Assembly (NCBI GenBank): GCA_020050435.1
Contig: JAGVKQ010000022.1
Location: 17,305-81,304 of the forward strand
Direction: 5' to 3'
Source: Candidatus Caenarcanales bacterium
GTDB lineage: Bacteria > Cyanobacteriota > Vampirovibrionia > 2-02-FULL-35-15
Length of the DNA stretch: 64,000 nt
Under the pieces are notes generated by a model. That model was given only the letters and a program-made list of their open reading frames with translations, was not told the origin of the DNA and ran no database searches. Each line of letters begins with the position of its first letter. Within the stretch, counting starts at the first letter, position 1. Shown here piece after piece: positions 8,744-64,000 of the stretch. The translations under genes were made by a program, and so were the position numbers.

Positions 8744-11038
8744 TCAAGGTGCAATATTACTATCAACCTCTTTATATTTCTTTTTAAAGAAACCACCCAT
8801 TTTGGGTTGCTCTTCTGTTGGCATTACTGGTTGTGCTGGTTCGGCTGGTTCTTGCTGAATTATATCCATTGGTGTAGGTGGTTCTTCAACCCTTGGTTCT
8901 TGAACCATAATGTTTATATCTTGTTCTAGATTGTCAGGATTTAAGATGACGTCACGTTTTGTTTCTTCTATAATATCTGCTTTGTTTTCATTGTCTTCAG
9001 GATTTTCTTTTTCATCTAAATCATCTTTCAATTCATCTTTATTGAAAAGTGGTCCGCTAAACAATCTTGAGAAAGGTCTAAATCTTTTTGCACCATCTGG
9101 TACTGGTGCAAAGTCAACAGGTTCTGTACCTGGGAAAAATCGACGTTTAACAGGATGTGATGTATAAGGTGTAGCTAAAAGTCCAGTAAGTGGATCTACT
9201 AATAATTCTTTCATAGATGCTTCATCTGGAAATGCGCCCGGCAAAATATCTTTATCTGCATAATATGCCTGGTAGTATTTTTTCCATACCCTGGCTACTA
9301 TAGCTCCTCCAGTTACACCTTTTCCAAAAATTGGTTTAAAGTGGTCATTTCCACCCCATATAGCTGTGGAATAATCAGGAGTAAATCCAATAAACCAAAC
9401 ATCCCTTGATTTATCTGATGTTCCAGTTTTTCCCGCAACAGGTCGATCATCAAGCTTTGCAAGAGTTCCAGTACCTCTTTTTACTACATCTTGAAGTATG
9501 CTAACAAGAACTGATGTTGATCCAGTAGAGGCTGCTCGTATGGGTACAGGATCATTTTTTTCTATGATTCTCTTTTTGGGATCTTCAATTTTTCTAATCA
9601 AAATAGGTTTTATATAAATGCCGCCTCTTGCAAAAGTAGCGTAAGAAGCAGCTGCTTCTAGTGGAGAAATAGCAGCACTACCTAGAGCTAATGATAAGTT
9701 TGGTTTAAGTTCAGTTTCAATACCACATGCTCTTGCCATTTTTATAACATTTTCAATACCAACTTGTTTGGCAACTTTTACGGCTGGAATATTTCTCGAT
9801 TTTACTAAGGCTTCTCTGATAGTAATGGTTCCTAGGAATGAACCATCAAAATTCTTTGGCTCCCAAACCATGTCACCATCGGGGTAAGACACTTTGGCAT
9901 CTTTAATTTTTGTACTTGGATCAATTAACCCCGCTTCAATAGCAGCTAAATAAGTAAATGGTTTAAATGCAGAACCAATGGTGTGCGGATTTGTAGCTCT
10001 GTTCCATTGGTGTTTCCAATAATCTCCAACCCCACCTACAAGAACTCTTATTTGTCCTGTTCTTACATCTACAGAAGCAAGAGCATATTGTGTAACTCCT
10101 GAAGGTGCATTTTTTATTTCTTCGTTTAGTATTCTTTCTGCTTTGATCTGAGCATCAGGATCTAATCCAGTGTAAACTTTATAACCTTTTGCTTTCAATT
10201 TTTGAATATCAAATCTTACTTTTAATTCTTCTAATACATATGAAAAATAGTAAGGGTAAAGTTCAAACTGACCTGGTGCAGATCTAAAGTGAAGCTTTTC
10301 TTTCTTTGCGCTTTCATATTGTTTATTTGTAATGTAACCAAACTCATGCATTTTTTTTAATACAAGATTTTTTCTTACTATGCCCTCATGCCTTTCTCTG
10401 GAAAGCTGACTGGGGGCTTTTAAAAGACCAGCTAAATATGCTGACTCTCCAAGGGTTAAATTGTTTGCACTCTTATTGAAGTATTTTTGAGCTGCTCTTT
10501 GAGCTCCATAAGCTCTACTTCCCCAAAAAACTTGATTCAAGTAAAGTTCTAAGATTTTATCTTTATTAACTTTTTTTTCCAATTCAAGCGAAAGAAGAAT
10601 TTCTTTTATCTTTCTTGAAAATGTTCTTCCTCTCTCATTTTCAGGGATTAAAAGGTTTTTTACTAGCTGTTGAGTAATGGTGCTAGCACCTTCTACAATT
10701 CTTCCGGCCTGGAGATTTACAAAAAATGCTCTTATAATTGCTGGCGGATCAATTCCGGAATGTTCATAAAAATCTTTATCTTCAATTGCTAAAACAGCTC
10801 TTTTTAAATAAGGGGATATTTCACTTAGAGGAACGACTTGTCTGTCTTCTTCCCCTTGTAAGAACCCTACAAAATTATCTTTATAATCATAAAGCTCAAT
10901 AGAACTAATGGGTTCATACTCAGTTATATTATCGAGACTGGGTAAACCAAAATAATCATTTAATGATGGAAGGGCTAAATAAGTACCTATTCCAATCCCT
11001 AAAATAAAAGCTAAAAGAAAAAGAAGTCTATTATTCAT
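8744..11038 (-). CDS. class A penicillin-binding protein (glycosyltransferase + transpeptidase) with a Pro/Glu-rich C-terminal tail
   Basis: GT51 motifs (EDKDFYEHSGID, GASTITQQLVKN) and the transpeptidase SxxK motif (SAFK). The start is placed at MNNRLLFLL (11038) rather than ORF position 11083, because a terminator hairpin lies at 11071-11097. Confidence 0.9.
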   Translation of the reverse strand: MNNRLLFLLAFILGIGIGTYLALPSLNDYFGLPSLDNITEYEPISSIELYDYKDNFVGFLQGEEDRQVVPLSEISPYLKRAVLAIEDKDFYEHSGIDPPAIIRAFFVNLQAGRIVEGASTITQQLVKNLLIPENERGRTFSRKIKEILLSLELEKKVNKDKILELYLNQVFWGSRAYGAQRAAQKYFNKSANNLTLGESAYLAGLLKAPSQLSRERHEGIVRKNLVLKKMHEFGYITNKQYESAKKEKLHFRSAPGQFELYPYYFSYVLEELKVRFDIQKLKAKGYKVYTGLDPDAQIKAERILNEEIKNAPSGVTQYALASVDVRTGQIRVLVGGVGDYWKHQWNRATNPHTIGSAFKPFTYLAAIEAGLIDPSTKIKDAKVSYPDGDMVWEPKNFDGSFLGTITIREALVKSRNIPAVKVAKQVGIENVIKMARACGIETELKPNLSLALGSAAISPLEAAASYATFARGGIYIKPILIRKIEDPKKRIIEKNDPVPIRAASTGSTSVLVSILQDVVKRGTGTLAKLDDRPVAGKTGTSDKSRDVWFIGFTPDYSTAIWGGNDHFKPIFGKGVTGGAIVARVWKKYYQAYYADKDILPGAFPDEASMKELLVDPLTGLLATPYTSHPVKRRFFPGTEPVDFAPVPDGAKRFRPFSRLFSGPLFNKDELKDDLDEKENPEDNENKADIIEETKRDVILNPDNLEQDINIMVQEPRVEEPPTPMDIIQQEPAEPAQPVMPTEEQPKMGGFFKKKYKEVDSNIAP

Positions 11039-14012: not shown

Positions 14013-14585
14013 ATGTCAAAAAAAATCAATTTGTTATTTATAGTTTTATTGCTTTCAAGTATTTCACAGGCTTCTTTTTCTCAAGTTTCTCAGAAAAGTG
14101 AAACCACTACTGTAACAACTACTACTATCAATAATGCAGATATAAAACTGGAATGTCCTGGTTATGAAAAACGAATAGAAGAACTAAAGTCTAATATACA
14201 AATCTTAGAACAAAAAATAAGTGAAGAAAAGCTAAAAGGTGAAAATCTAAAGCAAGGTGTAATAGATGCAGCAGAAACTAAGATTAAAGAATTAAATGAA
14301 CAAATTACATACAATCAAGATATCTTAAATGTGTGTAATGGGAAATTAAATAAACCTGATCCTAGCAAATGTACTAATTTTGAAAAAATAATTCAAAACC
14401 TTAATTCAAATAAGCAAATCTTAGAGAAAAGAATAGCTGAAGAAAAAGCAAAAGGTGAAAATGCAATGCCATCAGTTATTGATGTAGCTGAAACTAACAT
14501 TAAAGGACTTGATGAAGAAATTGTTCGTATGCAAAAAGCATTAAACACTTGTATAGAAGTTCAGGATCCTTTAGCTAATAAGTAA
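14013..14585 (+). CDS. secreted coiled-coil protein with an internal tandem duplication
   Basis: A signal peptide, then two roughly 60-aa units that are clearly homologous to each other (…IQILEQKISEEKLKGENLKQGVIDAAETKIKELNEQI… / …KQILEKRIAEEKAKGENAMPSVIDVAETNIKGLDEEI…). Confidence 0.5.
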   Translation: MSKKINLLFIVLLLSSISQASFSQVSQKSETTTVTTTTINNADIKLECPGYEKRIEELKSNIQILEQKISEEKLKGENLKQGVIDAAETKIKELNEQITYNQDILNVCNGKLNKPDPSKCTNFEKIIQNLNSNKQILEKRIAEEKAKGENAMPSVIDVAETNIKGLDEEIVRMQKALNTCIEVQDPLANK

Positions 14586-15762
14586 TTTTAAATATTGGAA
14601 GATCTGAACCTTGAATAAATTCATAGGAATTATCACATCGAAGTTTGTGACCTCCTGATAGAATTTTATAACTTAACCAAGAAGGTGTAATGCCTGTTTT
14701 AGAGCATTCTTCACAAGGACATGCAAGGTGTACTTCTTCTATTCCTTCAAGGTTATTAGATTTTAAGAAGTCTAAGATTCCTTTTTGTACTAGAGTAAGA
14801 AACTCTGATCCTTTTTGACCGGCAATTGTTAGATTCTTAGAGCCAAAATCACTTTTAATTATTACCTCCTTAGGATTATTAACAGGATCAGAACTAAGAC
14901 ATATTACGGAGGGATCAACATCAGTTACATATTTGCCTAGTTTTATTGCTAGAAATGGTATTGAATACCCTTCATGAAAAGTTTTTATTTTCATTGCTGG
15001 ATCTAACTTCTTTTTTGACGTTTCATACAAATGATAAGGTTGATTTATAGGAAAAATAATGTCGTCGCCGTGCTTTATTAGAACATTTAGTTTTTCTAAC
15101 TCACTTATTAGATTATCTACTTCTTCTTTAATTCCTAATTTACTCAAAATGCCAACAAATTCATTTCTGCTGACCTTCACCAACTCTTCTTTGGATCTAC
15201 CTTGGCTGGATGCTTGATTGATAATTCTCATTGCAAGATTACAAAAATAAAAATCTTTTTCTGTTATTTCCTGATTTGGTAAGTCTGTAGCTAATTTAAG
15301 AACTTCATCCCTTAATTCATCAATTCCATCATTAGAGCTACTATCTACATAAAATACATCAACCCCATTTTCTGGTTCTGGACTTTTACCAGGATCACAA
15401 TAACCACCCCTTGCCGTGTTGCAATGAGTGTCCACAGCAATAACATTTGATCTATTCGTAGGGTCAACTATTTTTTTCATTACTAACCATTGAGATCTGG
15501 CATCATCGATGTTAATTTGTTCTCTATTTATAGTTCTAGTTACTAAAAAGAGAGGATGAATTTTTCTTATAGGTTCAATTGAAGGAATAAAATGTTGTAT
15601 TTGCCCACCACAATCTATATAAACTATTCCATTTGCTTTATCTCTTGTTAAAGTCACATTAGGGGTCATAGCAGACCCTTTTTTAAAACCACTACCAGTT
15701 AATCTTCTAATGAGTGAAGTTTTACCAGCATTACCTTGTCCTATTACTGCTATAGGTTTCAT
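14575..15762 (-). CDS. Ras-like small GTPase domain protein with a ~220-aa C-terminal extension
   Basis: A P-loop GQGNAGKT[S] and switch II DCGGQ (Ras: DTAGQ), followed by a domain of unknown function. Confidence 0.55.
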   Translation of the reverse strand: MKPIAVIGQGNAGKTSLIRRLTGSGFKKGSAMTPNVTLTRDKANGIVYIDCGGQIQHFIPSIEPIRKIHPLFLVTRTINREQINIDDARSQWLVMKKIVDPTNRSNVIAVDTHCNTARGGYCDPGKSPEPENGVDVFYVDSSSNDGIDELRDEVLKLATDLPNQEITEKDFYFCNLAMRIINQASSQGRSKEELVKVSRNEFVGILSKLGIKEEVDNLISELEKLNVLIKHGDDIIFPINQPYHLYETSKKKLDPAMKIKTFHEGYSIPFLAIKLGKYVTDVDPSVICLSSDPVNNPKEVIIKSDFGSKNLTIAGQKGSEFLTLVQKGILDFLKSNNLEGIEEVHLACPCEECSKTGITPSWLSYKILSGGHKLRCDNSYEFIQGSDLPIFKITY

Positions 15763-15861
15763 AGATTTATCCTGTCAACTATTCTAGTAAAGAGGTTGAA
15801 AGATAGCAAATCTTTATCATAAGAAAAACATTAAATTTCTCTAATAATACAAATTAAGAAT

Positions 15862-17025: not shown

Positions 17026-17129
17026 GGATAAATATTGTAAATAAAAGTCTTAAATTTGATATTAAATTCCTCTAATAATACCTATTTAAGGTGAGTTGGC
17101 ATTTCTGTGGAATAAAAAATATATAGTAG

Positions 17130-22690: not shown

Positions 22691-22767
22691 GGCAGGTGTC
22701 GCCAAGTGGTTAAGGCCCCGGGTTGTGGTTCCGGTATTCGCGGGTTCAAGTCCCGTCATCTGCCCCA
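22691..22767 (+). tRNA. tRNA-His (anticodon GTG) with encoded G-1 and 3' CCA
   Basis: A cloverleaf folded by hand. Acceptor GCAGGTG/CATCTGC (with G-1 before it), U8, a D-arm, anticodon stem CCGGG/TCCGG with loop TTGTGGT (anticodon GTG), a 5-nt variable loop, T-arm GCGGG-TTCAAGT-CCCGT, discriminator C, then CCA. Confidence 0.85.
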
Positions 22768-24348
22768 TATGGGAAGAACAGAGGCACAAGCCTCTTCCTT
22801 CCCTTTATTTAAGCCACTTTCAGCTAGTTCTAACCTAACATTTGCATTATCAAGCTCTTCTTTGTTTTCAAGAATAGGTTTTAGCCAGAAAATAGGCTCT
22901 AGCTTTAGTTTCCTGTCTTTTAAAACAAAGTTCAATCCAAGTGAAGCAAGTACTTCTTTCCTCTTTTGTATATCGCCATTATCAAAGGCTTTCTTAGCGT
23001 TTTCAGCGAAATAAAAAACCCTTTGTGTAAGCTCAATCCAATCTAATGACCTTTTGTGAGTCTGGTCAAGTCTTTGCTTTATATTGACTAGTTCATTCTT
23101 TAAAGTCTCTTGCTCTTTGATAAATTGTTCATCTGTAATCAACTCACGATATCTCATTTGAATCAGATTATCCAATTGCTTTTGAGTTTGTACATAAGAT
23201 TTTTGTTGCATTTCATATTCTTGATTTCTAGCTTTTACTTCATTATCATTTGCTTCTTTTACTTTTCTTACTGCCCATTCTCTAAATTTTGTACTTATAC
23301 CAAATCCACTTATTTCTTTTAATATTTGTTTTTCCATATCACCTAAAGTAATACTTGGTTGATTACATTTATAGTTTTTATTTTTCTTAGTGCATCTGTA
23401 ATAAATATATTTTGCTATATCACCAGTGCTTTTTATATGTTTAAATTTCTCTTCAGCCGTTACATAACATCCACATTCACCACATTTAATCATTCCAGTA
23501 AAAGAAAACTCATGAGTTTTAGCTCTTGGTTTACCTTCTTTTCCTAACAAGAATTGAACCTTATCAAATTCATTTAAAGTAACCATAGCTTCATGCTGAC
23601 CAGGATAATTAAGCCCGCTATAACTAACTATTCCAGTATAAAAAACATTAGTAAATATTCTATATATGCTGCTATTAGATAGAGGTTTATTTCCACCCTT
23701 CTTACCTCTTCTAGTTCTAAATTTCCAATCTTTATTTGCAATCTCTATAATTTTTGGTGGATTATAATTTCCTGTAAGCATTAAATCCCACATTTTGCGT
23801 ACCAAATGACATCTTTCAGGATCATTAACTATAGTTCTAGTAGCAATATCATTTATGTAGCCAGTAGGTGCATAGCAAGGAAGCCAGCCTTTTTTTACTT
23901 TACTTTCTAATCCACGTTTTGTATTTCTTTTTAAATCAATGATAAATTGATTAGCCATTCCACTTTCAACACTAAACAATAAAACATTGTCTTCAGGTTT
24001 ATATTCTCTGGTATAAGTCCTTATAGATTTAATCGTACCTTCTTGAAGTAGCCAACTGATTTTTCCACTATCTATAGGATTTCTGCTTAATCTGTTTATT
24101 TCCCAGCATAAAATACCTTGAGCTTCTCCCTTTTCTATCCTTTGAAGCATATTTTCAAAAATGGGTCTATTGTTTGGCAATTTAGCAGATTTAGCTTCAG
24201 TAAAAGTTTTAACAATTTTTAAATCAAATCTCTTCGCTACTTCTTTAAGTTTATCTAACTGATCTTCAATAGACTGAACCTGCCTATCTTCAGCTTCCTG
24301 AGATTTTCTTACATAAATAAAATATTTAATTTGATTATTTTCTGACAT
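22756..24348 (-). CDS. large serine recombinase (phage-type serine integrase)
   Basis: An N-terminal resolvase catalytic domain (YVRKSQEAEDRQVQSIEDQ…), a recombinase domain, a Cys-rich zinc ribbon (CGECGCY…C…C) and a C-terminal coiled coil. The C-terminal 12 bp overlap the tRNA-His 3' end. Confidence 0.9.
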   Translation of the reverse strand: MSENNQIKYFIYVRKSQEAEDRQVQSIEDQLDKLKEVAKRFDLKIVKTFTEAKSAKLPNNRPIFENMLQRIEKGEAQGILCWEINRLSRNPIDSGKISWLLQEGTIKSIRTYTREYKPEDNVLLFSVESGMANQFIIDLKRNTKRGLESKVKKGWLPCYAPTGYINDIATRTIVNDPERCHLVRKMWDLMLTGNYNPPKIIEIANKDWKFRTRRGKKGGNKPLSNSSIYRIFTNVFYTGIVSYSGLNYPGQHEAMVTLNEFDKVQFLLGKEGKPRAKTHEFSFTGMIKCGECGCYVTAEEKFKHIKSTGDIAKYIYYRCTKKNKNYKCNQPSITLGDMEKQILKEISGFGISTKFREWAVRKVKEANDNEVKARNQEYEMQQKSYVQTQKQLDNLIQMRYRELITDEQFIKEQETLKNELVNIKQRLDQTHKRSLDWIELTQRVFYFAENAKKAFDNGDIQKRKEVLASLGLNFVLKDRKLKLEPIFWLKPILENKEELDNANVRLELAESGLNKGKEEACASVLPIWGR

Positions 24349-24356
24349 CTTCTTTT
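24334..24356. repeat. 23-bp perfect direct repeat (ttattttctgacatcttctttta). Copy 1 spans the integrase start codon; copy 2 is at 24622-24644.
   Basis: Identical 23-mers lie 288 bp apart. Copy 2 encodes a truncated MSENNKKD* duplicate of the integrase N-terminus. Confidence 0.7.
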
Positions 24357-24446
24357 ATCCCTGTGAAATGATCAATGAGTTCATTCATTGGTTTATCTTT
24401 CCTATTCTTTTTGCCTTAGGGAAGTTACCTTTTGGTACTTCCTTTT

Positions 24447-24482
24447 TAGGCTCTTCTTTAGGCTCTTCTTTAGGCTCTTCAG
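24447..24482. repeat. 12-bp tandem repeat x3 (ctcttctttagg), giving EEPK repeats in the small minus-strand ORF 24385..24606
   Basis: Direct tandem copies are visible. Which overlapping small ORF is real is ambiguous. Confidence 0.5.
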
Positions 24483-24621
24483 TATTTCTAGTAATACTTG
24501 TGTGTATTTCTCCTATCACTCCACCGACAATTACAACAAGTATGGGCAAGGCTACAATTGCCATTCCAATGTCTACTAGTTGTCCTATACCTGCTCCTAT
24601 TGTCATATATTAATCCTTTTT

Positions 24622-24796
24622 ATTATTTTCTGACATCTTCTTTTACCACCAACCATGTTTTAGCAATTTTTATTCCCTTCAATGAACCCGCTTTTATCCT
24701 TTCCTTTAATGTTGTTGCATTTGCATAACCTAGCTTTTCAGCATCTGCTAGTGTTATTAATTCTTTCCCTTTTTTGTTAAACACCTTTTCTTGCAT
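24622..24796 (-). pseudogene. Xis/excisionase-like HTH ORF disrupted by a 1-nt frameshift in an A4 run
   Basis: ATG at 24794-24796 gives MQEKVF then a stop. The -1 frame continues …NKKGKELITLADAEKLGYANATTLKERIKAGSLKGIKIAKTWLVVKEDVRK*, an excisionase-type HTH pattern. It lies next to the integrase. Confidence 0.4.
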
Positions 24797-24805
24797 TTAT
24801 TACTA

Positions 24806-25450
24806 TTATACCCTTTCTTGTTCTTGTCGGTATCGACAATTCTTTAATACATAAGAGTTATTTATATATTTTTCAAACTTAGTGAAATTAGCTTTAAACT
24901 TCTGTAGTTTTTTTATGTAAGCATTAAACTTTCTAGTTGTATTATTACGGTATAAAGGTCTCTTTGCTCTTTTCCTTGCTTCTTCTAGCTCTCCTGCACT
25001 TATTTGTTTACCAAATTCCTTCCACTTGCCACTTAAATTACAGGCTTCATAAGTTAAATCATGACAGCTTCTGCAAGCGAAATAATGACTATAATTAGGC
25101 TTATATAAAACAGCACAGAGCTTGTTACAGGGTCCATTATTTGCTTTAATTGAGGAGCATAGGAAGAATGGCCTTATACCCCCAAGACTGCAAGGCAAGT
25201 AAGCAAGCTTAATATCATAATCAACAAACTCCTTTTGACCATAATTATTTTTTGAACAATACTGAAGGTTTATTGATGGATTATCAGCAGCATTTGCAAA
25301 TGAAAAGCTTATTTCATGTATGTCATCATTAATTACCAGCAATACTCCTGAAGAATCATTATCAAGGAATCCTTGCTGATTTAAAGTATAAATAGACAGC
25401 TTTAAACAGTCTTCTACTTCAGTTTTCTTATTCATTTGGTAATTTATCAT
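24806..25450 (-). CDS. Cys-rich hypothetical protein (possible zinc-binding)
   Basis: An ORF with multiple CxxC-like pairs. Confidence 0.45.
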   Translation of the reverse strand: MINYQMNKKTEVEDCLKLSIYTLNQQGFLDNDSSGVLLVINDDIHEISFSFANAADNPSINLQYCSKNNYGQKEFVDYDIKLAYLPCSLGGIRPFFLCSSIKANNGPCNKLCAVLYKPNYSHYFACRSCHDLTYEACNLSGKWKEFGKQISAGELEEARKRAKRPLYRNNTTRKFNAYIKKLQKFKANFTKFEKYINNSYVLKNCRYRQEQERV

Positions 25451-25599
25451 AATTTACTTCTATCTGATTAGCTTAAAGTATCATCCCCTTGCCTAAATAA
25501 TTAGAGATAAGTATTGTTGATAGCCTTTTCAAGGTTTTAGCTTTTTTGAAACTATATGTATAAGAGCAAAAAGCTAAAACCTAACTTTTACATTTAAGA

Positions 25600-27417
25600 C
25601 TATTCATCTTTAACTAAAATATACTTAGTACTATAATCACCTTTCCCACCAGAACCTACTTTTAATATAAGTTCTTGCGTTTGCAGCATTTTCAAAGCTT
25701 TAGTTATTGCATCTTTACTAAACTCTTTTGGAACTAATTGCTCATCTATCTCTTTCCTTAAAAGTCCAAGTGGCACATTTTTTAGAATTTCCATGATTCG
25801 TTTACTGGCTTTTTCAGATTCCTTTGGCTTGCTATCAAACACAAAATTACTAGCACTACCCTCACTCTCAAAAAATATTAAATTATTCTCATCTGTAGCA
25901 CGTCTGATTGCGATAGGCTCAACTTCTGGACCCTCTTTAATCTTATTGGGTGTTAGCTTCAATAAAGGGCCGTCTGTGGCTTTCTCAACTACTAAATGGG
26001 TATCTAGGTAAGAAAGGATATCTGAAGAACCTCTCAATTTTTGAGAAGCTTCTTCCCTTATGTCCTTTACTTTCTTTTTGTGGTGATGTGTAAATATTAC
26101 AGAAATTCCGAAAGTTCTACATTTTGCAATTTGACTGAAAAAATTATTTGTAACTTCTGACTCATTTTCTGATCCTGTTATAAATCGCCTGAAAGAATCC
26201 ATAATCAATACTTTAACGCCTCTTTGAGCTGCTTTCTCTAAAGTCTGATCCCATATCTTACCGTCTTTATGCAGAGTAACTACTTGATCGCATGAAAGAA
26301 TAATATCTTCACTTTCAATAACTTCTTTACCACCTCTCATACATTCAAATCTTTTTTTAAGATTAGATAAAATACTTTCTTTATCTAACATCCATACTTT
26401 TTGTTTTTCACACTGGAATTTATTTAGCCACATCCCGCCAGTAGCAAAACAAATTGCTAAATCTAAAAGCAAGAAAGTTTTATAACTTGCTGGATCACCA
26501 GAAAGCATTGCTATACCTTTTTCTTTCAATAAAGTATCTACTATCCATTTAGGTTCGGGGAAATCTGATCTAAGTAAATCTCTAATAGTAATTGGATTTA
26601 ACCAAGAGCCTGGTTCATGAGCTGATTCATATTGCTCTAATGCTTCAGAAGCAATTCTAGAATTACTAGCACTATTGAAGATAGAACCAAGTTCACCTTT
26701 TATATATGCTTCAGCATAAGTAGAAGCACATTTATCTTTAGCAAATGCTTTGAACATTTCCCATGCAAGTTTTTGTTGTTTAGGGAAACCTGAATGTAAT
26801 TGCTGTGCTATTAAATATAAGTCAGTATTCCTTTGTCCTTCTGGAATCTCTGCTGATTCTAATATATCTTGAATCTTCCCTTTGTTAGCAGAACCATCTT
26901 CAAAACATGATTCTAAAAGTTCGTAAGGTAATTCTGGAATGTCATCCCATGATTCAGGGAACTCAGTAATTTTATAAGCATTGCCATTTGGATGTATTGA
27001 TGGTGGAGCAAGTACATAACCACCTTCACCACGGAAATCTACACCAGGAATTCTCCTGCAGAAGTTAGGAAGTGATTTCCCTTTTGGCATTTTAAAATAA
27101 AAATGTAATCCACCATTTCCAGTTTCTACAGTAAAAGTATATGGAAGCTTAGAAATTAATTCATTTGCTTCTGGTGTTGATTCATCAATGTCTATTACAC
27201 AAATGTTTGATAAATTACCAGTAATGATTGCTATATTTTGAAACTCTTTAAACCATTCAGTTATTTCTTCAATGGTTGGATGTCTTTCTTGGTATTCCTT
27301 CCACTTCATTGAAGGGATTTTAGATTTAGGTGGAAGAGCAAGAATTGATAATCCTTGACTGCAATAATAAGTTACTAAATTTCTAAATGTTTTATACTGC
27401 TCTTCTGATTGTTCCAT
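25600..27417 (-). CDS. bifunctional primase-polymerase (PrimPol) N-domain fused to a RecA-like P-loop ATPase (replicative helicase-like)
   Basis: The N-terminus (…LALPPKSKIPSMKWKEYQ…NIAIITG…VIDIDES…) is prim-pol-like. The middle (…AMLSGDPASYKTFLLLDLAICFATG…) is a P-loop/RepA-like domain. This pairing is typical of integrated elements. Confidence 0.75.
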   Translation of the reverse strand: MEQSEEQYKTFRNLVTYYCSQGLSILALPPKSKIPSMKWKEYQERHPTIEEITEWFKEFQNIAIITGNLSNICVIDIDESTPEANELISKLPYTFTVETGNGGLHFYFKMPKGKSLPNFCRRIPGVDFRGEGGYVLAPPSIHPNGNAYKITEFPESWDDIPELPYELLESCFEDGSANKGKIQDILESAEIPEGQRNTDLYLIAQQLHSGFPKQQKLAWEMFKAFAKDKCASTYAEAYIKGELGSIFNSASNSRIASEALEQYESAHEPGSWLNPITIRDLLRSDFPEPKWIVDTLLKEKGIAMLSGDPASYKTFLLLDLAICFATGGMWLNKFQCEKQKVWMLDKESILSNLKKRFECMRGGKEVIESEDIILSCDQVVTLHKDGKIWDQTLEKAAQRGVKVLIMDSFRRFITGSENESEVTNNFFSQIAKCRTFGISVIFTHHHKKKVKDIREEASQKLRGSSDILSYLDTHLVVEKATDGPLLKLTPNKIKEGPEVEPIAIRRATDENNLIFFESEGSASNFVFDSKPKESEKASKRIMEILKNVPLGLLRKEIDEQLVPKEFSKDAITKALKMLQTQELILKVGSGGKGDYSTKYILVKDE

Positions 27418-50891: not shown

Positions 50892-50931
50892 TAGAAGTTG
50901 CGTTGATTTCTACTATCTCCTCCTTGCAAAG

Positions 50932-50958
50932 AACCCCTCCTAACCGAGGGGTTTTTTG
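50932..50958 (+). terminator. rho-independent terminator (cccctc-ctaacc-gagggg + T6)
   Basis: A perfect GC stem and T-tract immediately after the stop codon. Confidence 0.65.
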
Positions 50959-50959
50959 T

Positions 50960-51262
50960 TTATTATATTGCCACCAGACAAGCTGGTGGCTTCCTATGAT
51001 CAATTCTATGCCCTTGTACGGATCCACCAAATAAATTGGATGGATCCTTTATTTGTGAATAAGTTTTTGTTTCTTTATAAAAGGTATAGGTTCAAACAAG
51101 TTGAACCTTTTCGCTAAAATATGAATTCAATGGGTCGGATCCACCGAATCCATCCTTCGGGAAACTTCGTTTCCTCTTCGGATGGCAGGAAATCGGATGG
51201 ATCCTCTATGTGCGAGTAAGTTATAAATAGCTTTCTGAACTGGTCACAATTTGTGACCAGTT
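50960..51262. repeat. cluster of palindromic repeats (GGATCCACC…GGATGGATCC family plus further hairpins) in a 430-bp intergenic region
   Basis: Hairpins at 50971-50989, 51020-51047, 51088-51108, 51132-51204 and 51240-51260. Three contain GGATCC/GGATGGATCC arms. Confidence 0.55.
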
Positions 51263-51323
51263 CGTATTTCTGTCTCTACAAATACTTTCTGCTATCATAT
51301 TACAGGTATTTGGGAGGATATTT

Positions 51324-52382
51324 ATGAGTAAAAGATTAGCGATTCTAACTGGTGGCGGAGACTGTCCAGGATTAAATAATGTAATTAGAGCAGTAGTATT
51401 TCAAGCAGTAAAAAAATACGGTGATGAAGTTATTGCCTTTGAGTATGGATGGAAAGGTCCCATCCAAAATATCACTAGATCGTTAACTCTTAAAGATGTA
51501 GATCATATATTTAATGAAGGTGGAACGATAATTAAAAGCTCCAGAACAAATCCTTATAAAGTAGAAGGCGGTCCACAAAAAGTAATGGATACCCTCAAGG
51601 CAAATAAAATTGATGCATTAATAGCTGTGGGTGGAGAAGATACATGTGGAGTAGCAGATAAGTTGGTAAATGATTTTAAAGCTCCTATTGTTTGTGTACC
51701 TAAAACTATCGATAACGACTTAAATGCTACAGATCAAACCTTTGGTTTTGATACATCTATTTCTATAGTTTGTGATGCCTTGGATAGATTACATACGACT
51801 GCTAAATCTCATGACAGAGTTTTAGTTCTTGAAGTTATGGGACGCCATGCAGGATGGATAGCTACTATGGGCGGAATGGCTGGAGCAGCAGATTATATCT
51901 TAATTCCAGAAGAACCATTTGATATTAAAAAAGTAGCTGAAGCAATTAAGATTAGAAAAAAAGAAGCTGGTTACGCCATTATCGTAGTTGCTGAAGGTGC
52001 AAAGTTTGCTGAAGGCGAAGTTTTAAAAGATCAGGAACTCGATGCTTTTGGTCACGTAAAACTTGGTGGAATTGGCGATAGAGTAGCAAAAAATATTGAA
52101 GAGCTTACAGGCTTTGAAACCAGATCTACTACCTTAGGTCATATTCAAAGAGGTGGATCACCTACAGCTTATGATAGAGTTCTTGGAACTAGATATGGAC
52201 TTGCTGCTGTAGATCTTATTCATAACAATAAACTAGGAAGAATGGTTTCACTTCAAGGTATTAAGATTACTGATGTAGCTATTAGAGAAGCTGTTGGTAC
52301 CCTTAAAACTGTAGAAATGACTATTTATGATCAGACTAGGGTTTTCTTTGGTGATGAAGTAAGACCAAAAGCAAAAGCGTGA
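51324..52382 (+). CDS. 6-phosphofructokinase, PPi-type donor-site signature (GGEDT, PKTIDND)
   Basis: PFK family collinearity. The GGDGS position reads GGEDT, and the Gly124-equivalent is Lys (VPKTIDNDL). Confidence 0.8.
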   Translation: MSKRLAILTGGGDCPGLNNVIRAVVFQAVKKYGDEVIAFEYGWKGPIQNITRSLTLKDVDHIFNEGGTIIKSSRTNPYKVEGGPQKVMDTLKANKIDALIAVGGEDTCGVADKLVNDFKAPIVCVPKTIDNDLNATDQTFGFDTSISIVCDALDRLHTTAKSHDRVLVLEVMGRHAGWIATMGGMAGAADYILIPEEPFDIKKVAEAIKIRKKEAGYAIIVVAEGAKFAEGEVLKDQELDAFGHVKLGGIGDRVAKNIEELTGFETRSTTLGHIQRGGSPTAYDRVLGTRYGLAAVDLIHNNKLGRMVSLQGIKITDVAIREAVGTLKTVEMTIYDQTRVFFGDEVRPKAKA

Positions 52383-52483: not shown

Positions 52484-53575
52484 ATGCCTAAAAATAAAAA
52501 AATAGGAATATTAACTGGTGGTGGAGATTGTCCAGGATTAAATGCTGTAATTCGTGCAGTAACTAAATCTGCTCACGAAAATGGATATGATGTCATTGGT
52601 TTTAAAGATGGTTTTAAAGGACTAGTTGAAAATGATTTTATTGAATTAACTGATTGTATGGTTTCAAATATCTTAACTCAAGGGGGAACGATTCTTGGGA
52701 CTTCTAATACTGCTAATCCATATAGGTGGGCAAAAAAAGATAAAAAAGGAAATCTAATATTTGAAGATCTGTCAGAAAAAGCCATTTCAAATTTTAAAAA
52801 AAATAAATTAGAAGCATTGGTTGTTTTGGGTGGTGATGGTTCCATGGCAATTGCAAATGATTTAGTGAATGATGGACTTAGTATAGTAGGTGTCCCAAAA
52901 ACCATTGATAATGATCTTCCCCATACTGATATGACTTTTGGATTTAATACTGCTGTTAGAACTGCTACTGGAGCTATTGATAAAATTCATACTACAGCTC
53001 AGTCGCATCATAGAGCCATGGTTGTAGAAGTAATGGGACGGTATACAGGCTGGATAGCACTTTATAGTGGTGTAGCTGGTGGTGGTGACATAATTTTAAT
53101 TCCTGAGATTCCATATGAAATAAAATCCATTTATAAAACAATAAAAGAAAGAAAAGAAAATGGTAAGAACTTTACTATTATTGTTGTTGCTGAAGGTGCA
53201 AAACCTAAAGGTGGAGATTTAACGGTTAGGAAAGTAATTAAAAATTCTCCTGATCCCATTAGACTTGGTGGTATTGGAATGAAATTAGCAAATGAAATAG
53301 AAGAGAATACTGGCATTGAATCCAGAGCTACGATATTAGGTCATATTCAAAGAGGGGGTGTGCCTACTCCATTTGATCGTGTACTTGCTACAAGATTTGG
53401 TGTAGAAGCTGTGAATCATGTTTTAAATAAAAGATATGGAAAAATGGTTGTTTTAAAAAATAATGAAATATCTTCTGTGCTTATATCCAGTGTTACCAGT
53501 GAAGTTAAAAATGTGCCAAAAAATTATAGTTTGATAAAAGCTGCAAGAGCTGTTGGAACGTGTTTCGGAGACTGA
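52484..53575 (+). CDS. 6-phosphofructokinase, ATP-type GGDGS signature but Lys at the 124-equivalent
   Basis: PFK family collinearity with VLGGDGSMAIA and VPKTIDNDL. Confidence 0.8.
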   Translation: MPKNKKIGILTGGGDCPGLNAVIRAVTKSAHENGYDVIGFKDGFKGLVENDFIELTDCMVSNILTQGGTILGTSNTANPYRWAKKDKKGNLIFEDLSEKAISNFKKNKLEALVVLGGDGSMAIANDLVNDGLSIVGVPKTIDNDLPHTDMTFGFNTAVRTATGAIDKIHTTAQSHHRAMVVEVMGRYTGWIALYSGVAGGGDIILIPEIPYEIKSIYKTIKERKENGKNFTIIVVAEGAKPKGGDLTVRKVIKNSPDPIRLGGIGMKLANEIEENTGIESRATILGHIQRGGVPTPFDRVLATRFGVEAVNHVLNKRYGKMVVLKNNEISSVLISSVTSEVKNVPKNYSLIKAARAVGTCFGD

Positions 53576-63277: not shown

Positions 63278-63372
63278 TTGTGATTTCCTTAAAATGTTTT
63301 TATCATAGTATTATTTATTTTTTTATTAATCAAGTAAAGTGGATTAAATTTCTCTAATAATACGGATTTGGA

Positions 63373-63948
63373 TTAACTGACTACCGTCTCTTGTTTATTT
63401 GCGCCGAACAATGTACTTACTTCTTTGTTTTGAATAACAGCCATCATTAAGATATCTCCACCTGGATAGCCGTAATAGCCATCTATTAAAAAACCATTGT
63501 CATGAATTTGATCTTGTAAAACTTTTGGTTTTATTTTTTGAACTGAATTATCTATTTCTTCTTTCTTGAAACCCGAAAACATTTTTTCAATAAATCCAAT
63601 TTCCGTATTTGCTGAAATAATCAACATGCCAGTTGGAAGAAGAAGCCTTCTTGCTTCATTATAGAAAGGTGCTGTGCTGTGTGGTGTACTGGCTTGTTGC
63701 AACAAGCCAGTACGATCGCATAACGAATAATCTATCACTATGCGTGTAAATGTATTGTCTTTTAAATCTTCTATTGTGGGTGAATTTACAATCGAATTGT
63801 TTTCTTTTATTTGATTAATAAATTCTTCTTCCCATTTACCGACAATAAGAACTGATTGTCCTTTACCAATAGCTTTCAATATTCTTTTTTTTATTTTCTC
63901 TGGTTTTGTAATCATTCCTTCTCCCTTACTTGCAATTAAAGGATCCAT
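63373..63948 (-). CDS. putative SAM-dependent methyltransferase-fold or aminopropyltransferase-like protein
   Basis: A weak resemblance to a spermidine-synthase/MTase region (…APFYNEARRLLLPTGMLII…). The start codon is embedded in a GGATCC palindrome. Confidence 0.35.
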   Translation of the reverse strand: MDPLIASKGEGMITKPEKIKKRILKAIGKGQSVLIVGKWEEEFINQIKENNSIVNSPTIEDLKDNTFTRIVIDYSLCDRTGLLQQASTPHSTAPFYNEARRLLLPTGMLIISANTEIGFIEKMFSGFKKEEIDNSVQKIKPKVLQDQIHDNGFLIDGYYGYPGGDILMMAVIQNKEVSTLFGANKQETVVS

Positions 63949-64000
63949 TCGATTTACTCGATGGATCCGAACAGACTGTTGGTACAGTCCAGGGAGGTTT

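Follow-up and report, generated by a model that had tools for sequence, protein, structure and literature searches.

A dispersed two-hairpin module in intergenic regions of a Melainabacteria-like genome and its relatives

Copies of the element and their genomic setting

A family of short intergenic hairpins was analysed in a 64,000-nt stretch of contig JAGVKQ010000022.1 from Candidatus Caenarcanales bacterium; the whole of that stretch is referred to below as the window. Two copies of the element, A and B, are situated between a gene for a 189-aa protein and pfk1, the first of two tandem 6-phosphofructokinase paralogues (51324-52382 and 52484-53575, with N-terminal coding regions that are 82% identical over 67 nt). 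The third, copy C, lies at the start of a methyltransferase-like gene at the far end of the window. The features of both regions are collected in Table 1. Related metagenomic loci are designated by L-numbers and homologous proteins by P-numbers.

A search of the window with the arm ATGGATCC followed by the tail pattern TYTAWNTGYRARTAAG returned exactly three matches, at 51040-51063 and 51197-51220 on the plus strand and at 63925-63948 on the minus strand, as compared with 0.01 expected from the mean of dinucleotide-preserving shuffles. The 49-nt match between copies A and C is the longest inverted repeat in the window. RNA folding, which the first-pass annotation of this DNA had proposed as a check, was carried out, and all three copies adopt the hairpin that was predicted; folding as single-stranded DNA is also good. 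This hairpin, designated E, contains 11 bp, seven in an outer stem (GGAUCCA/UGGAUCC) and four in an inner stem, with one bulged A between them on the 3′ side; its pentaloop is AUAAA in copy A and GUAAA in copy C (RUAAA for the family). The inner stems differ among the window copies yet still pair (CCAA/UUGG, CCGA/UCGG and UCGA/UCGA). In copy B the 5′ arm, GGATCCACC, is located at 51137-51145, 51 nt before ATGGATCC, and an additional hairpin of 40 nt (51147-51186) is nested in the loop; this insert is unique, no further copy of it being found in the window.

Hairpin E is only part of a larger unit. A second hairpin, hairpin 1, with 8 bp and an ACAAG loop (ACAAA in locus L001), starts 46-49 nt before E in four copies (A, B and those of loci L164 and L001). 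The complete module, of approximately 115 nt, thus consists of hairpin 1, a spacer of 25-28 nt, hairpin E and a 16-nt tail, UNUAWKUGYRARUAAG. The spacers show no sequence conservation, their similarity being at noise level; the copy C spacer aligns with that of L164. Upstream of pfk1, four hairpins of the two types alternate in the order H2-A-X-B, all in one orientation, with start-to-start spacings of 49-50, 68 and 48-49 nt. The 3′ arm of hairpin 1 can be aligned with the final six nucleotides of the window (AAACCT, minus strand), and copy C therefore probably carries hairpin 1 as well, cut by the window edge.

It is apparent from these results that the first-pass annotation was correct as to the three copies, their folding and the short peptides that the intergenic copies encode (MDPLFVNK..., 25 aa, and MDPLCASKL). 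Its account of the element's dimensions needs revision. The 8-12 nt that it placed between the arms does not hold for copy B, the range 51179-51230 that it assigned to that copy spans only the 3′ half, and the extent given for the element was too small, since the second hairpin lies on the 5′ side of both A and B. The start codon that it attributed to copy C is considered below.

Table 1. Features of the pfk1 upstream region and of the region around the start of the methyltransferase-like gene, in window coordinates
Feature	Position	Strand	Sequence or structure	Basis or remark
T1, canonical intrinsic terminator of the upstream 189-aa gene	50926-50959	+	14-bp stem, then TTTTTTGT	Terminator scan
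Hairpin 1, unit 1 (H2)	50970-50990	+	GCCACCAG-ACAAG-CTGGTGGC, 8 bp	Covariation
Hairpin E, copy A	51020-51047	+	GGAUCCA-CCAA-AUAAA-UUGG-A-UGGAUCC; bulged A at 51040	Covariance model, 73.9 bits
Conserved 16-nt tail, copy A	51048-51063	+	TTTATTTGTGAATAAG	
Hairpin 1, unit 2 (X)	51088-51108	+	AGGTTCAA-ACAAG-TTGAACCT	Covariation
Hairpin E, copy B	51137-51204	+	Arms as copy A; bulged A at 51197	Covariance model, 61.1 bits
Conserved tail, copy B	51205-51220	+	TCTATGTGCGAGTAAG	
H5, terminator-like palindrome outside the family	51236-51264	+	TGAACTGGTCACA-ATT-TGTGACCAGTTCG, 13 bp	Between copy B and the pfk promoter
Putative extended −10 promoter box of pfk1	51290-51301	+	TGCTATCATATT	Conserved in three relatives, its distance from the Shine-Dalgarno sequence being constant
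True start of the methyltransferase-like gene	63925-63916 (Shine-Dalgarno), 63915-63913 (ATG)	−	GGGAGAAGGA and ATG	Homologue alignment
Conserved tail, copy C	63925-63940	−	TTTAATTGCAAGTAAG	Final G overlaps the Shine-Dalgarno sequence
Hairpin E, copy C	63941-63968	−	GGAUCCA-UCGA-GUAAA-UCGA-A-UGGAUCC; bulged A at 63948	71.6 bits; bulged A is the A of the spurious ATG
Spacer, copy C	63969-63994 (whole piece 63969-64000)	−	Local hairpin GGACTGT-ACCA-ACAGTCT	

The upstream limit of the repeat cluster is the terminator T1, which is kept in L162 and L201. On the other side, sequences upstream of pfk1 in the window and in L162 and L164 were found on alignment to share a TG(C/G)TATCATATT box at a constant distance from the Shine-Dalgarno sequence, which, to judge from its TGnTATCAT form and its conservation, is probably an extended −10 promoter element. 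The units at this site are positioned 3′ of the terminator and 5′ of the box, and copies A and B consequently do not belong to the pfk 5′ untranslated region (UTR). The same site is empty in L162, where the terminator abuts the promoter; it contains one unit in L164, and two units followed by H5 in the window. In L201 it contains hairpin 1 and an unrelated insertion carrying a 77-aa open reading frame (ORF). That ORF, MLDEIDKFRVQIFQISGFALMTPFGKIFLEPW..., with a hydrophobic core, was observed at 6793-7026 of L201 (minus strand), a relative in which E is missing. H5 is absent from L162, L164 and L201.

A comparable arrangement was observed in L071, where the order (upstream gene, unit, canonical terminator, and a promoter of the next gene matching at 11/12 positions) is that of the pfk site; the terminator, at 1151-1174, begins 14 nt past the tail. 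Every copy is co-oriented with both of its flanking genes. Copies A and B are on the opposite strand from copy C, 13 kb away, and there is no switch in GC skew between them, although GC skew is uninformative here as regards replication.

Covariation and distribution of the module

Three copies were identified in addition to those of the window: one in L001-L003, in the gap between rnpB and the methyltransferase-like gene, one in L163/L164, upstream of the pfk1 orthologue, and one in L071, a 2.3-kb JGI contig recovered by a metagenome pattern scan. A covariance model (R1), applied to 173 kb of Melainabacteria loci, gave seven matches, which represent six distinct copies because L163 and L164 carry one that is identical; no intermediate or weaker scores were obtained. 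The model found no copy in L004, L157, L158, L160, L162, L201/L202 or the viral loci. The six copies were thus the only ones in about 190 kb of related sequence.

When the six copies were aligned, the stem base (GGAU...AUCC), the bulged A (6/6) and the AAA of the loop proved to be invariant, as were U, A, UG, A and U at fixed positions of the tail. The outer stem occurs as GGAUCCA/UGGAUCC, GGAUUUG/CAAAUCC and GGAUUCA/UGAAUCC (the L001 copy has ATGAATCC in its 3′ arm), and the inner stem also as CCGG/CCGG. Across hairpin E, 97% of the cells are paired, 7 of the 11 pairs have changed on both sides, one-sided changes number zero and no G-U pair is present in 66 cells. None of 500 shuffles reached these values, and shifting the partner by one column reduced pairing to 36-52%. 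This covariation means that the hairpin is real and maintained, and that it is under selection. The L164 copy reads A-CAAAUCC, with ACAAAUCC replacing AUGGAUCC, and contains no AUG; the ATG is therefore not a conserved feature of the family.

Hairpin 1 also covaries, with both sides changed in six of its eight pairs over six copies. Its stem in L164 (AGGTTCAG/CTGAACCT) is one compensatory pair away from hairpin 1 of unit 2, and that in L001 is AGCTTCAA/TTGAAGCT. Hairpins of 8 bp whose loop is ACAAG or ACAAA are confined to these units across 166 kb of related sequence. Hairpin 1 is degenerate in L071, and in L201 it is present without E.

With respect to hairpin E plus tail, the window copies and L071 are 80-96% identical to each other. 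For the L164 and L001 copies, identity to every other copy is only 58-67%, even where the same locus is occupied. The sequence of the module thus tracks the genome group rather than the locus.

A pattern comprising the 3′ arm and tail was run against a collection of 185,579 species, each represented by one genome and the source genome not being included; it yielded 43 matches, all attributable to chance and none with a 5′ arm. The exact two-arm pattern gave 107 matches in JGI metagenomes, of which one, L071, is real, and exact-pattern scans of viral contigs produced no real copy. Only a tRNA exceeded the gathering thresholds of Rfam 15 in the window, and no Rfam family matches the element. At E≤1 nothing overlaps the element in L071, and at E≤10 the pfk intergenic region shows only weak matches far below threshold. 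A search of the literature on non-coding RNAs or repeats of Melainabacteria returned nothing relevant, and we know of no catalogue of the non-coding repertoire or repeat families of this group. The motif does occur outside the window and its covariation is strong, the two points on which the first-pass annotation had made its reading depend. A usable covariance model now defines this structured intergenic module in non-photosynthetic relatives of the cyanobacteria.

The methyltransferase-like gene and the rnpB site

The ORF at 63373..63948 (minus strand), which begins MDPLIASK, was described in the first-pass annotation as owing a real start codon to copy C. Its 191-aa product is identical (100%) to the public record P0001. 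In an alignment of this protein with 19 homologues, conservation begins at M12 (MITKPEKI; ATG at 63915). Twelve of the 19 start exactly at that residue, and the extensions of the other seven are mutually unrelated and unconserved. The ATG at 63948 lies inside the stem and has no Shine-Dalgarno sequence before it, such a sequence, and a strong one, being found only ahead of 63915. The MDPLIASK start is therefore an artefact of ORF extension, and the ATG is simply the bulged A plus the first two bases of the stem, with no coding role. The homologues that bear a name come from metagenome-assembled genomes of Candidatus Melainabacteria or Obscuribacterales; the window itself has 33% G+C.

An equivalent case is provided by P0015 (187 aa; MNPTSANK...), from a relative whose contig carries the element at the corresponding place (L001 10001-10039). 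This protein, too, begins at the ATG of the element, and the conserved start lies 11-13 codons downstream of the called starts. Capture of the element as a gene start, as had been suggested, is not supported; instead, gene callers extended an ORF into it. The claim that a start codon always lies in the 3′ arm is true of the three window copies but not of the L164 copy. The outcome is a corrected start codon for a gene in public records, whose orthologue in a relative has a similar unconserved extension, and an indication that an ATG-bearing repeat can seed false N-terminal extensions. The MDPL peptides were also considered as coding sequences in their own right and rejected: they are 9 and 25 aa long, their changes do not fall at third positions and L164 has no ATG.

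In the relatives, the methyltransferase-like gene is directly downstream of rnpB, which encodes RNase P RNA (203.6 bits with Rfam in L003). The site between the two genes is filled in the window and L001 and empty in L004, L158 and L160. The rnpB gene was located at 9573-9921 in L001 and at about 8835-9215 in L004, and also in L158 and L160, with 11-40 nt separating it from the methyltransferase-like gene. No terminator or promoter is visible in this gap in the relatives, which implies either co-transcription of the two genes or a promoter inside rnpB. It is very probable that rnpB of the source genome lies just beyond window position 64000.

Within the methyltransferase-like gene, a perfect 28-nt palindrome (GTACTGGCTTGTTG/CAACAAGCCAGTAC, 63685-63714) was observed in the region encoding the hypervariable loop of the protein. 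Orthologues have different, likewise perfect palindromes at the matching codon position, of 30 nt in L004 (GGTAGAGCCGTTGTA/TACAACGGCTCTACC, 9440-9469) and of 22 nt in L157 (GAGACGTTGTG/CACAACGTCTC, 2009-2030); L001 and L160 have none there. The palindromes of the window, L004 and L157 have a common GTTGT/ACAAC core and fully compensated arms, and have the appearance of an in-frame palindromic insertion kept perfect over a long divergence. The arms of H5 (ACTGG...CCAGT) resemble those of the palindrome at 63685-63714, a likeness that suggests a second palindromic repeat family.

Some other features of the window were recorded. A tRNA gene (22692-22764) adjoins the ORF of a large serine recombinase on the other strand (22756-24348, minus), with an overlap of 9 nt. 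Next to these are a Prim-Pol/AAA_25 protein (25600-27417, minus) and several ORFs without a Pfam match, and the region from 22692 to 27417 is probably an integrated mobile element. A motif of 21-26 nt on the minus strand, GTATTATTAGAGAAATTTAAT, occurs in three copies that are 88-100% identical (15830-15855, 17061-17086 and 63343-63368), situated 36-70 nt upstream of minus-strand gene starts at 15762, 17025 and 63277; the motif may be an operator or promoter element common to the three. Finally, a 155-nt direct repeat with 74% identity (14152-14306 and 14368-14522) falls within an ORF of 190 aa (14013-14585) that has no Pfam match, and represents an internal duplication of the protein.

Interpretation and comparison with known systems

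The interpretation that we prefer, tentatively and at a little short of an even chance, is that the module is a lineage-restricted, low-copy intergenic family, akin to the structured repeats known as repetitive extragenic palindromic (REP) sequences and BIMEs (bacterial interspersed mosaic elements), within a low-GC genome of the Melainabacteria type. According to this interpretation, the module would function in folded, single-stranded form, with a single trans-acting factor recognising it. Recognition of that kind would explain why the loop, the bulge, the stem base and the tail are fixed, other stem positions needing only to pair, and likewise why the copies of the window group share one stem sequence and the relatives carry compensated variants. 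The module would be gained, lost and duplicated in safe intergenic spots, building up alternating mosaics of the two hairpin types, and it would be mobilised or maintained at the DNA level, an HUH/Y1-type enzyme being one candidate means. Copies would be transcribed passively with their neighbours, and their hairpins could also stabilise or end transcripts. The data show a structured module, asymmetric between strands, that undergoes gain, loss, duplication and homogenisation within genome groups and is located for the most part between a terminator and the promoter that follows; repeats of the REP/BIME type behave in this way. The first-pass annotation had offered two interpretations, a translational leader and an element resembling REPs or miniature inverted-repeat transposable elements (MITEs) captured as a gene start. 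Of these, the REP/MITE-like portion is broadly supported, by the dispersed copies, the covariation, the filled and empty orthologous sites, the tandem mosaic and the group-wise likeness; the leader and the captured start are not.

Several observations weigh against a REP/BIME-like repeat. A Pfam scan of the window ORFs with a length of 110 aa or more detected no Y1/HUH transposase, REP-associated tyrosine transposase (RAYT) or TnpB, and none is present among genes called in the related loci. The module lacks the defining 5′ GTAG of REPs, its four bases before the stem being GTAC, GGTC, GTTC, AATC, GATC and GGTA (consensus GNTC). The apparent copy number is low, with three copies in 64 kb, none in several related loci of 10-20 kb and a single real match to the exact arms in JGI metagenomes. 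The copies in one genome are not the products of recent transposition, because their spacers lack similarity. Every stem is nonetheless intact, a pattern resembling purifying selection locus by locus and expected of an RNA with a function in the host. Moreover, the copies are co-oriented with both flanking genes, and A/B and C are on opposite strands within 13 kb, without any sign of a replichore switch; a constraint tied to transcription accounts for this better than a bias towards the lagging strand.

A novel structured non-coding RNA is a serious rival, and the main one; we regard it as a real possibility without considering it probable. The module could be a small RNA gene with paralogues, in which the 5′ hairpin is followed by a single-stranded tail, serving as a seed or binding site, and then by a terminator, or it could be a cis element, transcribed along with its neighbours, that a specific RNA-binding protein or RNase binds. 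Such an RNA would act on the stability, processing or termination of transcripts or, by way of its tail, on targets with which it pairs. The covariation of two hairpins, together with an invariant loop, bulge and tail and free spacers, is what this proposal would predict, and structured RNAs show expansions of the kind that copy B has, with an added hairpin in its loop; the lack of any G-U pair in hairpin E and the retention of hairpin 1 without E in L201 are less easily reconciled with it. As regards position, the L164 and L001 copies occupy the same intergenic sites as those of the window although the surrounding intergenic DNA cannot be aligned, and all loci are co-oriented with both neighbours, but presence at orthologous sites is patchy and the sequence follows the genome group rather than the locus. 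Signals for expression are similarly mixed. A terminator-like hairpin is found 14-24 nt past the tail in three copies (the terminator of L071, H5 for copy B and hairpin X for copy A), whereas L164, L001 and copy C have no terminator. A pair resembling −35 and −10 boxes, TTCAAA-18-TAAAAT, precedes copy B, but no consistent promoter emerges, a −10-like box being present in only about 3/6 copies in a genome of 67% A+T, and in neither copy C nor L164. The missing Rfam match lends no support to this reading.

The other explanations are considerably less probable. It is improbable that the hairpins are ordinary intrinsic terminators, or stabilisers of transcript ends, that are alike by chance or local duplication. 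They are, to be sure, downstream of genes and co-oriented with them, and in 4/6 copies the first 8 nt after the stem are U-rich, with at least five U (UUUAUUUG, UUUUAUUU, UUUAAUUG and UAUAUUUG); U-tracts are poor in copies B and L001, however, the terminator scan does not call the E hairpins, and the constancy of the bulge, loop and 16-nt tail from one locus and genome to another exceeds what a terminator needs. Copy C, moreover, is 9 nt before a gene start, where an efficient terminator would silence the gene, and the abutment of rnpB and the methyltransferase-like gene in relatives offers a separate promoter no obvious space. It is very improbable that the module is a 5′ leader with the start codon concealed in a hairpin's 3′ arm so as to control translation of the downstream gene. 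The AUG is in the 3′ arm in all three window copies and, in copy C and L001, is in frame with the downstream ORF, but the L001 copy was found by way of its in-frame extension, so that its frame reflects ascertainment and is not independent evidence. The AUG is unconserved, being absent from L164, and variation in the supposed codons does not fall at third positions. In the conserved protein the start is M12, which a strong Shine-Dalgarno sequence precedes, the hairpin AUG having none. Copies A and B, whose peptides (25 and 9 aa) are unrelated, lie upstream of the pfk promoter and hence outside its 5′ UTR. Least probable of all is that the inverted repeat serves a dimeric transcription factor as an operator in double-stranded DNA. 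The arms are palindromic and intergenic, and co-variation of half-sites can mimic that of a stem, but the inner stem varies within one genome (CCAA/TTGG, CCGA/TCGG and TCGA/TCGA), the element is asymmetric in its one-sided bulge, its loop and its one-sided tail, and copy B tolerates a 40-nt insertion between the half-sites.

Particular arrangements within the unit were also tried and rejected. A promoter with its −35 box in hairpin 1 and its −10 box in the spacer is found in only about 3/6 copies; the tail as a −35 box (TTGYRA) has a fitting −10 box, at 17 nt, only after copy A; and a pseudoknot between loop and tail (AUAAA with UUUAU) shows no covariation in B, L164 and L001.

We consider it rather unlikely that the module is a new bipartite structured RNA with a dedicated protein in the Melainabacteria clade, or the substrate of an unrecognised hairpin-directed system for mobilising single-stranded DNA that lacks the GTAG. 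Such a mobilisation system could be linked to the perfect palindromes inside the methyltransferase-like gene. If an RNA with a dedicated partner, or a substrate of a new hairpin-directed mobilisation enzyme, did prove to be involved, it would be a modest but real addition to knowledge; a REP-like repeat would be ordinary biology in an unusual host.

Among known systems, leaders that sequester a start codon or Shine-Dalgarno sequence share with the module an AUG in the 3′ arm of a stable hairpin near a gene start, in copy C only; they differ in that the AUG of the module is neither a conserved start nor conserved in the family, and the other copies are outside a 5′ UTR. RAT antiterminators, preQ1-I, CsrA-binding GGA loops, boxA/boxB, attC and small ribozymes were weighed and dropped on grounds of sequence or architecture; none is among the Rfam matches. 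The Correia elements of Neisseria, the enterobacterial ERIC sequences and the pneumococcal BOX and RUP elements are modular intergenic repeats of about 100-150 nt, co-transcribed and with stable hairpins, which can add or remove promoters, terminators and processing sites. These have terminal inverted repeats and, usually, target duplications, whereas the ends of the module are unrelated and its apparent copy number is far lower. A classical MITE was rejected, the left end (AGGTTCAA...) and the reverse-complemented right end (CTTACTCG...) being unrelated. No convincing target duplication was found, only AT-rich 4-nt matches flanking the L001 unit.

Non-autonomous derivatives of IS200/IS605 (palindrome-associated transposable elements; PMC3201880), and the ends of IS608, resemble the module in lacking terminal inverted repeats and a clear target duplication, in having a hairpin near each end with a bulged base in the 3′ arm, in the fixed-length conserved stretch from the foot of the hairpin to the end of homology, and in clean empty sites in relatives. 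The module differs in having copies on opposite strands within 13 kb and neither tnpA nor tnpB nearby. An IS200/IS605 derivative, in which one TnpA recognises similar subterminal hairpins at both ends, was rejected, because hairpin 1, with its ACAAG loop and no bulge, is unrelated in sequence to hairpin E, with its RUAAA loop and bulged A. Pairing between guide and cleavage sites of the IS608 type was rejected as well: the guides, which are the four bases before the stem, are not complementary to the tail ends and do not covary with them (TAAG in four copies, GCAA and TAAA).

The closest resemblance is to REPs and BIMEs. As described in PMC8266576 and PMC2817692, these are short intergenic imperfect palindromes that fold as single strands, with a conserved bulge and strand-specific recognition features; the sequences are genome-specific and copies are tolerated inside transcripts, all of which the module shares. 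In BIMEs, two hairpin types (the y and z REPs) alternate at regular spacing in clusters, a pattern that the H2-A-X-B cluster may reproduce. REP transposases need the bulge and strand-specific single-stranded features (PMC8266576). Classical REPs, on the other hand, exceed 100 copies per genome (PMC2817692) and occur with a RAYT gene that is usually flanked by REPs, and the hairpins of BIMEs alternate in orientation; the module has no 5′ GTAG, apparently few copies, a conserved 16-nt 3′ tail, hairpins that are all in one orientation and no RAYT gene in sight, and its host is Melainabacteria-like where those of REPs and BIMEs are proteobacterial. Since the GTAG is missing, the apparent copy number is low and the window contains no Y1 transposase, the module is not a member of the REP/BIME family as defined. 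Within the broad class of dispersed intergenic hairpin repeats it represents a new member, specific to its lineage and occurring in a poorly studied host.

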